Assembly: GCA_046497275.1 (NCBI GenBank)
Contig: JAWOFX010000178.1
Location: forward strand, 1 to 12,779
Source of the DNA: Promethearchaeia archaeon
GTDB taxonomy: Archaea; Asgardarchaeota; Lokiarchaeia; Sigyniarchaeales; SOKP01
Length of the DNA stretch: 12,779 nt
Direction: 5' to 3'
Shown: in pieces, positions 1-4,909 of the stretch
Numbering within the stretch: position 1 is the stretch's first letter
How the letters are laid out: each line of letters begins with the position of its first letter
The notes under the pieces: model-generated
Databases searched by the model: none
What the model was told of the DNA's origin: nothing
Seen by the model: the letters and a program-made list of their open reading frames with translations, nothing else
Program-made: the position numbers and the translations under genes

Positions 1-414
1 CGAGATATTGGTCCTCCTATGTATCCTCCTTATATAAATTATAATGGAGTCTATGGGCAATTTGATCCCATTGAAGTTGATAAGAGAGAGGATTGCTTGG
101 CGTGTGGAGATATCGAGGGTGAGGAAAATGTTCAAATTGTTGTTCCTTTTGATGCAGATATTAATTATATATTCAATGCTATGAAAATCACTGGATATGA
201 ATTGGAACCAAATGAATGGTTAATAACCAATCCTCGAAGTAAAGAAATATATTGGGATCCTAATGCAAATAATCCTATTTTCAAAGATCCTGAAGTAAAA
301 TTAAGAGGTGAGTTAAAGGTAGAAAGCAATGAAATTTTAACTTTAACACCACTTGGAAAAGCAAAAGAAAAGTCTAATATTAAGAAATATAATGTAATCG
401 TGACCTATATGTGA
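1..414 (+). CDS. Ubiquitin-activating E1/ThiF-MoeB family enzyme, C-terminal part (5' truncated by window edge)
   Basis: Frame 1 is open from base 1 (RDIGPPMYPPY...), so the ATG at 19 is probably internal. 'YNGVYGQFDPIEVDKREDCLACG' matches the E1/ThiF C-terminal CxxCG zinc motif. It is followed by about 100 aa that could be a ubiquitin-fold (E2-binding) domain. An E2 gene lies 2.5 kb away. Confidence 0.7.
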   Translation, partial: RDIGPPMYPPYINYNGVYGQFDPIEVDKREDCLACGDIEGEENVQIVVPFDADINYIFNAMKITGYELEPNEWLITNPRSKEIYWDPNANNPIFKDPEVKLRGELKVESNEILTLTPLGKAKEKSNIKKYNVIVTYM

Positions 415-419
415 TTTCT

Positions 420-1040
420 TTAATCTTTTTGCTGGTTATTTACAAATTGGATTAGATCATCAATAAGATACGCCTTAACTCCAGCATTTGTTCCTGTTAA
501 AAGATCTTTTTTCATATCCCCAATAAAAAGCATCTCATCAGTTTCCACATTAAAATGATCTTTAATTATAATCAAACCTTCGGGCTCAGGCTTCCATCTT
601 CTTACATCTTCTCTTCCCACAATAAAATCAAAATATTTTAAAATATCTTCTTGTTTAAGCGACTTTTTTATAGTATTTCTAGAATTAAGGGATAATATTG
701 CCAATTTAGTATCTTCGGGAATACCAAATTTTTTCTTATGTTTGATTAACTCAATAGTTTGAGGTATAGGTATATTATTTTCAATATTTTTTATCTCGAA
801 CTCTCTAATAATCTTAAAATGGTTGTGCAATTCTTCTTTCTGATCTTTTGCTACCACAAAACTGAGACATTCAGAAATACTGTGAAATTCACATGACTCA
901 TCAAAGATTTTAGAGTATCTATTGGACAGAATATTTTTTAATTCTTGCCAATTCACATCCAATCTTACAATTGTTCCATCTAAATCAAAAACAATTACTT
1001 TTTTACCTTGAAATGCAGATTTGTTTAATATATAAACCAC
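420..1040 (-). CDS. HAD-superfamily hydrolase (phosphoglycolate phosphatase-like, subfamily IA)
   Basis: Motif I FDLDGTI, motif II LSLNS, motif III WKPEPEG, motif IV FIGDMKKD. GTG start. Confidence 0.9.
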   Translation of the reverse strand: MVYILNKSAFQGKKVIVFDLDGTIVRLDVNWQELKNILSNRYSKIFDESCEFHSISECLSFVVAKDQKEELHNHFKIIREFEIKNIENNIPIPQTIELIKHKKKFGIPEDTKLAILSLNSRNTIKKSLKQEDILKYFDFIVGREDVRRWKPEPEGLIIIKDHFNVETDEMLFIGDMKKDLLTGTNAGVKAYLIDDLIQFVNNQQKD

Positions 1041-1311: not shown

Positions 1312-1347
1312 AATCCATTGCATATTTTTGCGCAATTTTTCTGCCTT
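1312..1347 (+). repeat. Direct repeat copy A: degenerate duplicate of the E2 gene 3' end
   Basis: aatccattgcatatttttgcgcaatttttctgcctt versus 2871-2907 aatccattgcatatttttgcgtccatttttctgcctt. The first 21 nt are identical; overall 35/37 with one mismatch and a 1-nt gap. On the minus strand it reads ...GCG CAA AAA TAT GCA ATG GAT TGA (AQKYAMD*). Confidence 0.9.
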
Positions 1348-1399
1348 AACAATTTTTCGAAAATTCATAAGACCCTCATATTTTTAAAAAAAGAATAGA

Positions 1400-2824
1400 T
1401 TGTTAATTTTAATGGATAGAAATCTGTTTGAAGCTTGGAGAGAGGTAAATCATCATTATAATAAAATAAAAATATGCAGAAAATCATTAAAAAGTTCAAT
1501 TGTAAGACATAATTATGTATTTTTCAAAAAAGGTGATAAAGGCGTTCTTCGTTGTATTTATTGTGGAAATAAATTAGTAAATGATGAGTTTTCTAAAGGA
1601 TTTTTAAATCATAGAAATAAGTCTAAAGAAGATCAAAATAAGGGTTTTGGGGATATTACAATTTATAGAATTTATTGGTATAAAAATATTAATGGGGGTT
1701 TTTTGGAGTTTCCTGGATTAAATTATGTTGGTCAAACTAAAAATTCAGCATATAAAAGGATATTGGGTAATGGTGGTCATTTCAATAAAGCATTTAATGC
1801 TCCTTCGACTTCAATTGAATATTCCATTAAGAAATATGGAAAGAATTTGGATTTAGCAAAAAAAATATTTCGCTTTAAAATAATTCAGATTGTGAAATTT
1901 CAAGGCAGTTGGACTCTAATAGAAAAAATAAAGGATTCAAATAAACGGAAGAAAATGATTAAAAAATGGCAGAGAAAAACTCAAGAATTAGCAAATAAAA
2001 TAGAACAATTCTGGATAGGTTTCTATCATTCTCAATTTTATCGATTTGGAAGAAATATTCTTCCAGGAGGGAAGAAAACTCGTAGTTTTGCTTCTTTAAA
2101 TTATAAAACATTGGATAAAGTGTTAGAAGAAGCTTGTGTACTATCTAGAATTGCTGTTAGAAAAGATTATGTGTTTGAGAGATTAGATTTAAACGTTACT
2201 CAAAATAGAATTTTGGATAATAACATAAGAAGATGGTATGGAATTAGGAAAAAACCATTTGAGACAATTATAAGAAGAAAAAGGTTAAACAGGATTAAAG
2301 ATCTCTTTGAAAAAGGATATAAAATTAGTGATATTGCAAAAAATATCAATGCTAATAGAAGTGATATTAGAAAGTGGTTAACATCAAGCATTTATAATAA
2401 AAAATTTCCGAAAAAGAGTACAATGGAGATTAGGAAAATAGTTATTTCCACAAAAATTAAATATCTCATTGGCCTCGGTATTAAAAATCCGTCAGATCTT
2501 CTACAAAAATTACCCGGATTTAAGAATTCCGAAGCTATAACGCATTTTATAAGAAGAAATATTAGCTCTTGGTATGATTTAATTAATGAGTTTGCTCCTA
2601 AAAAAGATTATTGGAATATAGCGAAGAAATTAATTATAAAACGATATAAGAATAATTTAAAGTTTGGAAAAAAACTTTATACATCAGTAGAGTTTGCTAG
2701 AATCCTGGGTTCTAAAGCTAATAGTTCCTCTGCTGCTATTAAATACATAAAGAGAAAATTAAATACGGAGCTCTCTTGGTCAGAAATTATGGATTGTGTA
2801 ATTGATAATTTTACTAATAAGTGA
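1400..2824 (+). CDS. GIY-YIG family endonuclease (homing-endonuclease-like) with C-terminal HTH-like DNA-binding region
   Basis: TIYRI...YVGQT...KRI...H, followed by IEQFWI (putative catalytic Glu) and FGRNILPGG (the GxN..PGG motif of intron-type GIY-YIG enzymes). HTH-like GYKISDIAKNINANRSDIRKWL. Very Lys/Arg-rich. Start is either TTG 1400 or ATG 1412. Confidence 0.8.
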   Translation: MLILMDRNLFEAWREVNHHYNKIKICRKSLKSSIVRHNYVFFKKGDKGVLRCIYCGNKLVNDEFSKGFLNHRNKSKEDQNKGFGDITIYRIYWYKNINGGFLEFPGLNYVGQTKNSAYKRILGNGGHFNKAFNAPSTSIEYSIKKYGKNLDLAKKIFRFKIIQIVKFQGSWTLIEKIKDSNKRKKMIKKWQRKTQELANKIEQFWIGFYHSQFYRFGRNILPGGKKTRSFASLNYKTLDKVLEEACVLSRIAVRKDYVFERLDLNVTQNRILDNNIRRWYGIRKKPFETIIRRKRLNRIKDLFEKGYKISDIAKNINANRSDIRKWLTSSIYNKKFPKKSTMEIRKIVISTKIKYLIGLGIKNPSDLLQKLPGFKNSEAITHFIRRNISSWYDLINEFAPKKDYWNIAKKLIIKRYKNNLKFGKKLYTSVEFARILGSKANSSSAAIKYIKRKLNTELSWSEIMDCVIDNFTNK

Positions 2825-2868
2825 ACTGTTTAATATTAAGTAAAAAAATTTAGAAAAAAATATGATAT

Positions 2869-2990
2869 TTAATCCATTGCATATTTTTGCGTCCATTTTT
2901 CTGCCTTTTTCTGAAAACTCTTATGTGAGCGAAAATATTGCTCACCTGCTTCGTGATTCAGCGGATCTCCAGGATTGAAAAAGGGCGGCT
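2869..2990 (-). CDS. Ubiquitin-conjugating enzyme E2 (UBC fold), exon 2
   Basis: Encodes (E)PPFFNPGDPLNHEAGEQYFRSHKSFQKKAEKWTQKYAMD*. This resembles the UBE2D/Ubc4 C-terminus (NPDDPL...EWTQKYAM). Confidence 0.85.
2871..2907 (+). repeat. Direct repeat copy B: the functional E2 3' end (KAEKWTQKYAMD)
   Basis: Matches 1312-1347 at 35/37 and lies inside E2 exon 2. Confidence 0.9.
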
Positions 2991-3022
2991 TTATGCTCTC
3001 AAGCAATAAATTTGCAGGAGAT
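2991..3022 (-). other. Putative 32-nt bulge-helix-bulge (tRNA-type) intron in the E2 mRNA
   Basis: mRNA sense: GC-AUGU-AG^A-UCUC-cu-GCAA-auuua-UUGC-uu-GAGA-GCAU-AA^A-GC. The 4-bp central helix AUGU/GCAU is flanked by 3-nt bulges AGA and AAA, with intron helix UCUC/GAGA and exon helix GC/GC. Cutting after the second nt of each bulge removes exactly 32 nt, including a UAA stop, and joins the two E2 frames as ...MMHVEPPFFNP.... Confidence 0.85.
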
Positions 3023-3410
3023 CTACATGCATCATGCCCTTTAAAGCTTCTATTATGCTTATCAGAGTTTTCGAAGGAGTCCATCCACTTGCTCCTGTTG
3101 CAGGATCAACCTTTCCAACTTTATCTGGATTTATTAAGTCCAAACAAATATTTAATTTTCCCGGGGGGATCGAGGAATCAATATTTGGATGCCACATCAA
3201 GGTCACCGCATAGACATAGGGGGGAGCAAAAGGATAATTATCAGGAAATTTAATTTCAAACACGAATCGTCCATTCTCATAAGGTGTATCATCCTTTCCT
3301 ATAATAGTTAATCTGAGATGGTCAATACTCCTACCCCAAGGTTCTAATATGACATGTTCATCATCTTTATATGCTTCTATTGCTTCTGCATAGTCAGTCT
3401 CTTCTCTAAT
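3023..3410 (-). CDS. Ubiquitin-conjugating enzyme E2 (UBC fold), exon 1
   Basis: The stop-free frame runs from 3416. It encodes REETDYAEAIEAYKDDEHVILEPWGRSIDHLRLTIIGKDDTPYENGRFVFEIKFPDNYPFAPP...WHPNI...NICLDLI...GWTPSKTLISIIEALKGMMHV, containing the TPY, YPFxPP and HPN motifs and the catalytic Cys. There is no in-frame ATG/GTG/TTG before 3263; the start is placed tentatively at ATT 3410. The spliced CDS is 388+122=510 nt, or 169 aa. Confidence 0.85.
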
Positions 3411-3416
3411 CGTTTG

Positions 3417-3423
3417 TCACCTT
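3417..3423 (-). promoter_or_regulatory. Putative archaeal Shine-Dalgarno (AAGGTGA) for E2
   Basis: GGTGA matches the archaeal SD core (GGAGGUGA) and lies 6 nt upstream of ATT 3410. Confidence 0.45.
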
Positions 3424-3801
3424 AGCTTTATGTTTACAAATATTAAATTATTTTTAAAACTTAGATTTTGTAAGTTTATAAAATTATATATTGAATAGTT
3501 AAAAAATTTTGTATAAACAAGACCTAAATTTTATTTTTTAGTTGTTATATTCTTGGTAAAGTATAATATTTTATACATTAAAATTTCAATTATTTTTTAT
3601 TATAAATGTGATATTATCCAACTCAGTGGGAATAAAGACCCAAATTGTTTTATAGTTCCGAGAGTATGATATGAAAGATTCGTGCAAATTCAAGAGCACA
3701 TAATTTAATAGCTCTATTACTAACAATTATAAAATCGAAAAAATTAAATTAATTCCACAATTATAATTTTTATCATAATCCCCTCTTAACTCAGTTGGTA
3801 G

Positions 3802-3829
3802 AAAATATTCTTTTCGAATATTTATCAAA
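3802..3829 (+). other. tRNA intron 1 (28 nt, non-canonical position 22/23 in the D arm)
   Basis: Central helix TGGT(3796-99)/ATCA(3824-27), bulges AGA (3800-02) and AAA (3828-30), intron stem AAATATTC/GAATATTT. Confidence 0.88.
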
Positions 3830-3844
3830 AGTGCTCGGCTGTAG

Positions 3845-3892
3845 ATATAATCGCGTATAAAGGCATCTGCCGATGAATATACGTCAGCCGAA
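3845..3892 (+). other. tRNA intron 2 (48 nt, canonical position 37/38)
   Basis: Removal restores the anticodon loop CTGTAG|A and stem CTCGG/CCGAG. Bulges are AGA and AAA. The central helix CTGT/GCCG has one mismatch (relaxed BHB). Internal stem CGTATA/TATACG. Confidence 0.82.
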
Positions 3893-4128
3893 ACCGAGAT
3901 GTCGCCAGGTCGAGACTGGCAGAGGGGATCACCTAATTTTCCTTCTCAGCTTTTCAATATGTGAATTAGAAATTGAATTTGATTTATGAAATAAAATATT
4001 CATTATCCATAAAGAGAATAAGAATAATATTCCCAAAAAATTTTAATCAGAACAAGCATTATTTCCGCCTTTAATAAAAGTTCTTTTTTATATTGTTAGT
4101 ATTTAATAACATCAGAATTCTCACACCC

Positions 4129-4166: not shown

Positions 4167-4421
4167 ATGATGACAACTGATATGGATACTATAATTTTAA
4201 AGATTGGATCGAAGGGAGAAATCTTTCCTCCAAAAGAAATCCGAGAGAAATTAGGATTTGAACCTAATCAACCAATTTTGCTGCATGTTCATGAAGATCA
4301 ACTAATCGTAAGAAAAATTTACTCAATGGAAGAGATATTGAATGTTCCACCCAAAACGAAAATAAGTTATCATGCTTGGAAACAATTTAAAAAAGATTTA
4401 CTTGAGGAATATGAGTCATGA
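4167..4421 (+). CDS. vapB: AbrB/MazE/SpoVT-family antitoxin
   Basis: IGSKGEIFPPKEIREKLGFEPNQPI matches the AbrB-type swapped-hairpin motif. Its stop overlaps the toxin start (ATGA at 4418-4421). Confidence 0.85.
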   Translation: MMTTDMDTIILKIGSKGEIFPPKEIREKLGFEPNQPILLHVHEDQLIVRKIYSMEEILNVPPKTKISYHAWKQFKKDLLEEYES

Positions 4422-4909
4422 AGATACTCATTGATACTTCATACTTTTTACCTCTTATTAAAATTGGGATTAAAACAATTCCTAATAAGCTCTTAATTGA
4501 TATTCTCGCGAAATCCAACAATACCTATTTTTACTCTAATTTGACCCTTTTTGAGCTCACGGCGAAAGGGTTAAAATTATCATCAAAAGAGAATAAAATA
4601 ACACCCCAAGATGTAAGGATCGGAATTGACACCATTCGAAACGATGCACGACTAACAGAACTATCGTTTACAAATAATCCTTTTATAATCGAATTAGCAT
4701 CTGATTTAAAAAAAGTGCATAATGATACTATAGACTGCTTGATTTTCGCGACTGCAATTTGCACCTGTGATTGTATCATCACGATGGATGAATTTCTCTT
4801 CACTCAAATAAATACAAGGCCTCCATTACTTAAAACGGTGAGAGAACTTAATAGTAGCTTCCAATTTTGGTTTAATGACCTTTCAGGAGAGTTAAAGTCC
4901 CTCAAATAA
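4418..4909 (+). CDS. vapC: PIN-domain ribonuclease toxin
   Basis: ILIDTSYF at the N-terminus, TLFE, DTIDCLIFATA and IITMD give the PIN acidic tetrad. Translationally coupled to the AbrB-type gene. Confidence 0.85.
   Translation: MKILIDTSYFLPLIKIGIKTIPNKLLIDILAKSNNTYFYSNLTLFELTAKGLKLSSKENKITPQDVRIGIDTIRNDARLTELSFTNNPFIIELASDLKKVHNDTIDCLIFATAICTCDCIITMDEFLFTQINTRPPLLKTVRELNSSFQFWFNDLSGELKSLK

Follow-up and report, generated by a model that had tools for sequence, protein, structure and literature searches.

A putative homing-endonuclease cassette of the I-TevI type at the 3′ end of an E2 gene in an Asgard archaeal chromosome

Why does the 3′ end of an E2 gene of the ubiquitin system occur twice in an archaeal chromosome, with a single long open reading frame (ORF) between the two copies? 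The question is raised by a stretch of 12,779 bp (hereafter the window), which is the complete contig C79 of a 3.85-Mb metagenome-assembled genome (MAG) with a completeness of 98.9%, and whose host was placed among the Promethearchaeota (Asgard archaea) by the source names of homologous proteins. From comparison with related genomes we consider it likely that the ORF is a free-standing homing-endonuclease gene of the I-TevI type that forms, together with the last ~25 codons of E2, a cassette which was copied into the E2 3′ end.

The E2 gene of the window (2869-3410, minus strand) encodes a UQ_con protein (Pfam, E 1.8e-21) and is interrupted by an intron, so that it does not appear as one continuous ORF: exon 1 extends from 3023 to 3410 with an ATT start, exon 2 from 2872 to 2990, and the stop codon occupies 2869-2871. 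A first-pass annotation, made from the letters of the window, had claimed that the last ~12 codons of this gene are present twice, that the copy remote from the gene is degenerate with a 1-nt deletion yet still ends AQKYAMD-TGA, and that the only ORF between the copies encodes a GIY-YIG protein. The description of the repeat was borne out in every part. Positions 1312-1347 (copy A) and 2871-2907 (copy B) share AATCCATTGCATATTTTTGCG (21 nt exact) and, after a few differing bases, ATTTTTCTGCCTT (13 nt exact); the bases between the exact blocks are C-A in copy A and TCC in copy B, i.e. a 1-nt deletion and one mismatch. The 21-mer occurs twice in the window and had no match in 200 dinucleotide shuffles, so that none is expected by chance, and in the whole 3.85-Mb genome the repeat matches at these two places only. 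Both copies lie on the minus strand. Copy B terminates the E2 frame (..KWTQKYAMD-TAA) and is the working 3′ end of the gene, comprising the last 24 codons plus stop (2869-2944), and its upstream edge at 2944/2945 is referred to as site S. Copy A, hereafter also the stub, is by repeat alignment a decaying duplicate of the last 12 E2 codons plus stop; it reads ..IAQKYAMD-TGA, is out of frame with the preceding sequence and has TGA, not TAA, as its stop codon. The single long ORF between them, known from the ORF list and from alignments, is encoded on the plus strand (1412-2824, open from a TTG at 1400).

Repeat and ORF might have been joined by mis-assembly of a metagenome bin, a possibility that the first-pass annotation had itself raised and that is conceivable for a short (12.8 kb) MAG contig. 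However, contigs from an independent sediment run (X2) cover positions 1229-1478 and 1449-2941 of the window and one contig from the run of another study (X3) covers 1536-3421, and both the stub-ORF and the ORF-E2 junction are bridged in these contigs. An independent JGI metagenome contig (L028) furthermore shows the same layout with sequence differences of its own and a longer stub. An assembly artefact is refuted by these contigs, and we give it next to no weight. A joint between positions 648 and 3476 in one X2 contig was disregarded, since only 21 letters support it on one side, and uncovered stretches in X3, X5 and X8 were not taken as evidence of absence.

The product of the ORF has 470 aa from the ATG and 474 aa from the TTG at 1400, and consists of an N-terminal CxxC element, a GIY-YIG domain and C-terminal tandem helix-turn-helix (HTH) modules. 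The GIY-YIG catalytic domain (residues ~84-228 of P0001; 1649-2083, plus strand) was delimited by alignments, hhalign and a domain model, while the C-terminal region (2102-2821, plus strand) is a predicted DNA-binding region with several HTH modules, as judged from its model and from weak Pfam HTH matches. Standard searches returned little: Pfam models run on the whole ORF and its sub-regions gave only weak zf-BED, HTH_7 and HTH_40 matches, PHROGs yielded no match below E 0.04, PDB sequences searched with a profile of the domain alignment produced no meaningful match, and a fold search with the whole 474-aa model, whose N-terminal half has low pLDDT, returned only HTH regulators. An exhaustive profile search of 1.8 billion representatives found just 64 relatives of the ORF. 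The most distant of them (P0056, P0058, P0059 and P0062) were found by the family profile, pass the Pfam GIY-YIG model PF01541 and bear NUMOD or HTH_7 DNA-binding modules. When the N-terminal domain of the ORF family was compared by hhalign with PF01541-positive proteins, a probability of 99.3% was obtained (E 3.2e-20). Folded alone, the GIY-YIG domain reached a pLDDT of 89; its model superimposed on I-TevI (1mk0) with Z 10.1 and an rmsd of 2.6 Å over 95 of 97 residues, the next best being UvrC GIY-YIG domains with Z 5.2-5.8, and 1mk0 was also the top Foldseek match (probability 0.99). The catalytic residues correspond to Y89, Y109, R120, H127, E202 and N219 of P0001. Among 21 family members Y109, G111 and E202 are invariant and R120 and N219 are at least 90% conserved, and Y89, R120, H127, E202 and N219 are invariant in six full-length homologues. 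The C-terminal region was modelled as all-helical (pLDDT 76-95) with matches to AraC-type tandem-HTH folds. Profile-profile and model-based fold comparison, the kind of check that had been proposed for a GIY-YIG call made from motifs, confirmed the ORF product as a member of the I-TevI-type GIY-YIG superfamily, and the family as a whole appears to be a divergent I-TevI-type group beyond the reach of Pfam.

A nuclease domain combined with a separate DNA-binding region is the architecture of homing endonucleases of the I-TevI/Seg type. As in I-TevI and the Seg enzymes of T4-like phages, the GIY-YIG domain is N-terminal and the predicted HTH DNA-binding region C-terminal, and the ORF shares with this group a free-standing position between host genes, 44 nt from the E2 stop, and a sporadic distribution. 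It differs from I-TevI in an identity of ~23%, a helical insertion of ~25 aa in the catalytic domain, the extra N-terminal CxxC region and the presence of several HTH modules, and from the I-TevI/Seg group in its Asgard archaeal host. In a survey of the GIY-YIG superfamily from 2006, viruses, bacteria and organelles are the only listed sources of I-TevI-type enzymes (PMC1564403).

Is the ORF an insertion, or an old resident of this chromosome? A query with the ORF protein was positive in none of 60 relatives, among them all six other species of the genus, so that one of the seven genomes of the genus contains the ORF, and a domain profile placed family members in 10 of 161 genomes of the class, all ten in one family. 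E2 orthologues were present in 59 of 61 relatives. In the window the gene beyond the stub encodes a HAD-family hydrolase (420-1040, minus strand; Pfam HAD_2, E 2.5e-23), and in ten genomes of five genera the HAD gene directly follows E2 at a distance of 44-156 nt (L008-L012, L014, L015, L017, L020 and L021). Relative to these empty sites the ORF is, as gene order indicates, an insertion, and the alternative that it is vertically inherited and syntenic in all relatives does not agree with the existence of empty sites and of genomes without the ORF in the same genus. The expectation that an empty allele would consist of HAD directly after a single E2 end holds for the ten genomes but not within the genus of the window, where the ORF-less state is E2-geneX-HAD: here and in two other genera a gene of ~465 aa, termed geneX, lies on the E2 strand between E2 and HAD. 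It is missing from both the window and L028, and a search of the window's genome for an orthologue found none, only paralogues of 21-37% identity. The product of geneX carries the motif MVYFE.SR.GF.CG.. and a weak MIT-like C-terminus (L022 4408-5802, L027 972-2387, L023 6790-8178 and others).

Close homologues of the ORF (44-87% identity) were found in six lineages, and in all of them the gene is tail-to-tail with E2 at a distance of 29-90 nt from the stop codon of the latter (contigs L028, L029, L030/L031, L032-L036, L047 and L062). The neighbour on the far side varies among them and is HAD, a trypsin/CARDB gene or small ORFs. Two of these lineages carry a stub comparable to that of the window. 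In L028, whose duplication event is common to the window, the stub has 84 nt and is 82-84% identical to the working end; window positions 2861-2944 match it (658-741) at 82%, and relative to it the stub of the window has lost 74 nt. Over the first 16 codons of the L028 stub all differences from the working end are synonymous; the last eight codons are decayed. The second case is contig C91 of the MAG G132 (G132:C91, the same as L062), an independent lineage whose ORF is only 47% identical to that of the window. Its duplication comprises 107 nt, and the boundaries of the two duplications (L028 for the window lineage, and G132:C91) fall within ~5 nt of the same E2 position, GGNG^ARCAATA, at 2944/2945 in the window.

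The G132:C91 locus allows the origin of the two ends to be traced. Its stub of 22 codons plus stop encodes a protein identical to the working end, with 13 synonymous and no non-synonymous differences; these differences predate the duplication, because random decay would give mostly non-synonymous changes. The stub agrees with the E2 ends of the neighbour species G138 and G143 at 65/69 and 64/69 positions (93-94%), and the working end agrees with any end sampled at no more than 56/69 positions (81%). In addition, the E2 gene of G132:C91 is a mosaic that is 96% identical to that of a second E2 locus of the same MAG, G132:C185, over its first 192 nt and 71-83% thereafter. By these comparisons with sampled ends, the stub of G132:C91 is shown to be the resident E2 end and the working end to be imported. 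The first-pass annotation had called for homologues beside duplicated gene ends elsewhere, and this independent lineage provides one, complete with a native and a foreign end. Its further proposal, that copy A is the displaced original terminus of E2, finds support in the native stub of G132:C91 but not in the window itself, where copy A is closest to the window's own copy B.

The pairing of the gene with E2 might also be read as the mark of an old, domesticated GIY-YIG/HTH gene with a functional tie to E2, for example a regulator or a repair factor, that was present in the ancestor of the family, is inherited vertically and was lost many times, the duplicated E2 ends being incidental rearrangements. 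The gene is indeed maintained: the pairing with E2 is kept down to 44% identity, and comparison with the 87%-identical copy in L028 showed no stops and a dN/dS of 0.29, so that the endonuclease gene is intact and under purifying selection. Synonymous divergence between the window and L028 is similar for ORF (0.21) and E2 (0.28), and metatranscriptome contigs with pieces of the ORF come from two studies; in one of these studies spliced E2 is present as well. The presence of ORF sequence in RNA libraries is also weak evidence that the gene is expressed. However, the gene is present in only one of seven genomes of the genus, and its family in only 10 of 161 of the class, the far-side neighbours differ among lineages, and without recombination between diverged genomes neither the native and foreign ends nor the mosaic E2 of G132:C91 can be accounted for. 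We therefore regard domestication as quite improbable.

The reading that we prefer, an endonuclease gene mobilised together with the end of its target gene, is based on the empty sites, on the fold and motifs of the protein, on the flanking duplication and on the recurrence at the same place in divergent hosts. The earlier proposal of a selfish endonuclease element at an archaeal E2 3′ end is thereby supported by empty sites, fold and recurrent placement. The enzyme would cut a cassette-less E2 gene in the conserved stretch before the last 25 codons, near 2944/2945 of the window, and the broken chromosome would be repaired from a cassette-bearing donor. In this repair the upstream broken end would pair with the E2 gene of the donor and the downstream end, formed by the E2 tail of the recipient itself, with the stub of the donor, with the result that the donor's E2 tail and the endonuclease gene would be copied in between. 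The recipient's E2 tail would be pushed downstream and decay there. The stub would hence be a portable homology arm on the downstream side, and the differences in far-side genes between hosts would find their explanation in this. Since the stub of the window is down to 36 nt and frameshifted, the insertion event there is, by this measure, old.

The same topology could be generated by another event. A small circular DNA carrying an E2 3′ fragment and the ORF could have integrated by a single recombination with the E2 tail, in the manner of Campbell-type or site-specific integration, through homologous recombination of the host or an unseen integrase; the repeat would then resemble attL/attR, and the ORF, as a mere passenger or the gene of a DNA-binding protein, would not be the agent. 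One crossover in a shared segment yields exactly a repeat-insert-repeat arrangement, the two copies in the window lineage are each other's closest relatives, and the C-terminal region of the ORF product has weak matches to the resolvase-type HTH_7. Yet no integrase or recombinase domain is encoded in the 1.56-kb unit, whose sole ORF is a GIY-YIG nuclease, and the catalytic residues of this nuclease are conserved throughout the family. In two lineages, moreover, the boundary of the repeat falls at the same position of E2, and the mosaic E2 of G132:C91 changes its affinity far upstream of the repeat; break repair with co-conversion fits both observations better than a crossover confined to the repeat. 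Integration of this kind appears unlikely to us.

Several observations weigh against the cassette copied by break repair, and they concern both the enzyme and the locus. The Pfam GIY-YIG model PF01541 gave no match to the whole ORF or to residues 75-235 at E values up to 10, a failure that is due to the strong divergence of the sequence and to its insertion. Support for cleavage, target site and homing is wholly comparative. For the lineage of the window itself the available ends do not demonstrate import of the working end: copies A and B are mutually closest, with the stub of this lineage 84.5% identical to its own working copy versus 75% to that of G002, the nearest ORF-less species. This would be explained by a very close donor or by an exchange of sequence between the copies. 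In a mosaic test against G002 and others the E2 gene of the window likewise showed no clear break. A second E2 end was sought at DNA and protein level beside L029, L030/L031, L032 and L047, and none was found above shuffled controls; the lack of a detectable stub in L029, L030, L032 and L047 is also consistent with decay. The MAG G132 has a contamination of 8% and two E2 loci (C91 and C185), and its native reference may be a co-binned strain. Finally, site S of the window is apparently intact after the insertion. A cassette that regenerates site S does not by itself protect its carrier, so that self-immunity needs another explanation, possibly the intron.

More distant members of the family were found in other surroundings. 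At ~30% identity, the genes in L048 (2188-4170) and L037 (10001-12094) are placed tail-to-tail against the 3′ end of an unrelated gene (DUF2229 or an ORF of 120 aa) or overlap it, and in the protein P0008 (1795 aa) the entire module is present as a C-terminal fusion. A duplicated end of the neighbouring gene was sought beside the homologue in L037, and nothing was found above shuffled controls at either DNA or protein level.

Mobile elements of a comparable build are known from fungal mitochondria. The ORF of Allomyces atp6 is a GIY-YIG endonuclease. Mobile endonuclease ORFs (mORFs) with duplication of the C-terminal part of the host gene have been described from Glomus atp6, atp9, cox2 and nad3 and from atp6 of Allomyces macrogynus, a GIY-YIG enzyme being involved in Glomus atp9 (PMC3630166). 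In Glomus the displaced copy groups with close relatives and the inserted copy does not, and the passages of the same paper on Allomyces atp6 give the displaced copy as identical to that of the sister species and the inserted one as divergent from it (PMC3630166). The order of gene 5′ part, inserted C-terminus, ORF and displaced C-terminus is shared by the mitochondrial mORFs and the loci of the window, L028 and L062, and G132:C91 has a native displaced end beside an imported working end, as do Allomyces and Glomus. Unlike the Allomyces element, the Asgard ORF is located on the strand opposite E2, tail-to-tail, and is not in phase with the host gene. Unlike the mitochondrial mORFs in general, it resides in an archaeal chromosome at a nuclear-type gene of the ubiquitin system and not at an organellar respiratory gene, and its family is too divergent for Pfam.

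Could the intron in E2 be part of the same system? The intron of the window (32 nt, 2991-3022, minus strand) lies 46 nt upstream of site S in the sense of E2. The insert is absent from ~41 E2 orthologues, folds into a canonical bulge-helix-bulge structure (H/B/h′), and run X5 includes an RNA contig with the exactly spliced form of E2. All ORF-linked E2 genes (6/6 lineages) have a bulge-helix-bulge insert of 29-32 nt at ATGAT^GCATGTAG^AG, located 46-52 nt upstream of the duplication boundary, versus 5/46 ORF-less E2 loci, one of which keeps an ORF remnant; these lineages are related to one another, so that the counts do not represent independent samples. Compensatory changes between the inserts occur in the 4-bp central helix (AUGU/GCAU, ACGU/GCGU and AAUG/CGUU) and in the inner hairpin. 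The E2 gene of G132:C91 (L062 2700-3380) contains three introns, one after ..FAPP, one at ATGAT^GCA and one at GGAG^AACAA, the last being located exactly at the duplication boundary (GGAG^..^AACAATAC). In L047 the E2 gene (1600-2171) has two, one at ATGAT^GCA and one of 31 nt located 27 nt before the stop. Sequence matches suggest further interrupted E2 genes in G014, G016, G024, G128, G144 and G157.

Intron and endonuclease gene also appear together in what looks like a series of stages. L029 combines an intact ORF with the intron type of two other loci, L070 and L081. In L070, which is G132:C185, the intron-bearing E2 is followed by only the last 25 endonuclease codons (1189-1263, 84% identical), and in L081, from G142, the same intron type is found and the ORF is missing. 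Judged from these alignments, L029, L070 and L081 look like the intact, degraded and lost states of the element, and the two E2 loci of G132 are probably co-binned strains at different stages of its life cycle.

These observations allow a tentative suggestion, namely that the endonuclease family and the bulge-helix-bulge introns of E2 might form a collaborative homing system; the comparisons make this possible, and we hold it with considerably less confidence than the cassette itself. The enzyme would recognise the highly conserved E2 sequence that extends without interruption from the intron site (ATGATGCATGTAG^AGCC) to site S (GGNG^ARCAATA), and the introns would split the recognition sequence in the DNA and so protect the genomes that carry them. 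Break repair would then spread either the intron alone or the intron together with the endonuclease cassette, and the pairing partner of the broken tail, working end or stub of the donor, would decide between these outcomes. Collaborative (trans) homing has been described for F-CphI, encoded beside the intron-containing psbA gene of cyanophage S-PM2, and for mobE of T4 with the td/I-TevIII intron (PMC6083498, PMC2790892). As in these systems, a free-standing endonuclease gene adjoins a conserved gene with an ORF-less intron, and the presence of the two is correlated. Unlike in these systems, the intron is a protein-spliced bulge-helix-bulge intron of 29-32 nt and not a self-splicing group I intron, and 46 nt separate the duplication boundary from the intron site. 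If true, this would be a DNA-level mechanism of mobility for ORF-less archaeal introns in a protein-coding gene. The E2 gene of the window is locally very similar to other E2 genes around the intron (98% to G004 and G017). This was not counted as co-conversion, since selection on the exon bases GCCGCCC, which pair in the outer helix of the intron, could equally explain it. Downstream of site S the identity of E2 is lower, perhaps simply because its C-terminal helix is under weaker constraint.

The remaining features of the locus are as follows. The 44-nt spacer between the endonuclease stop and the E2 stop (2825-2868) has T-runs on both strands and separates the two genes tail-to-tail; homology to the sequence downstream of E2 in relatives reaches to ~2833-2842. 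On the other side of the ORF, the A/T-rich region at 1351-1411 (plus strand) is near-identical between the window and its sister contig L028, while the sequence farther upstream has diverged, and we presume it to be the promoter of the endonuclease gene. The E2 gene apparently starts with ATT (3408-3410, minus strand), 6 nt after a GGTGA motif resembling a Shine-Dalgarno sequence. No ATG, GTG or TTG occurs in its frame before residue ~80, and E2 orthologues have ATT, ATC, ATG or TTG at the aligned start codon. The window begins with the end of a conserved ORF (1-414, plus strand). A tRNA-Tyr-like gene with anticodon GTA lies at ~3780-3930 (plus strand), contains two introns, one in the D-arm and one at 37/38, and is conserved in relatives; ARAGORN and Rfam at its gathering threshold found nothing in the window, both missing this gene. 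It is followed by an overlapping pair of a MazE/AbrB-type antitoxin and a PIN-domain toxin (VapBC-like; 4167-4909, plus strand).

To our knowledge, the known archaeal homing endonucleases are LAGLIDADG enzymes in rRNA introns and inteins, and the replacement of C-terminal gene ends has been described so far mainly in fungal mitochondria and phages. What would be new here is a divergent, free-standing family of the I-TevI type, invisible to Pfam, in Asgard chromosomes, with a cassette that would use the trick of the fungal mitochondrial mORFs, bringing along its own gene end, on a eukaryote-like gene of the ubiquitin system. The locus of G132:C91 is a concrete example of diverged Asgard genomes having recombined, and the family appears to offer an intact, degraded and lost series of a selfish gene. 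The tight association with introns of the tRNA type, finally, might provide a testable route to how ORF-less introns reach archaeal protein-coding genes and move between them.

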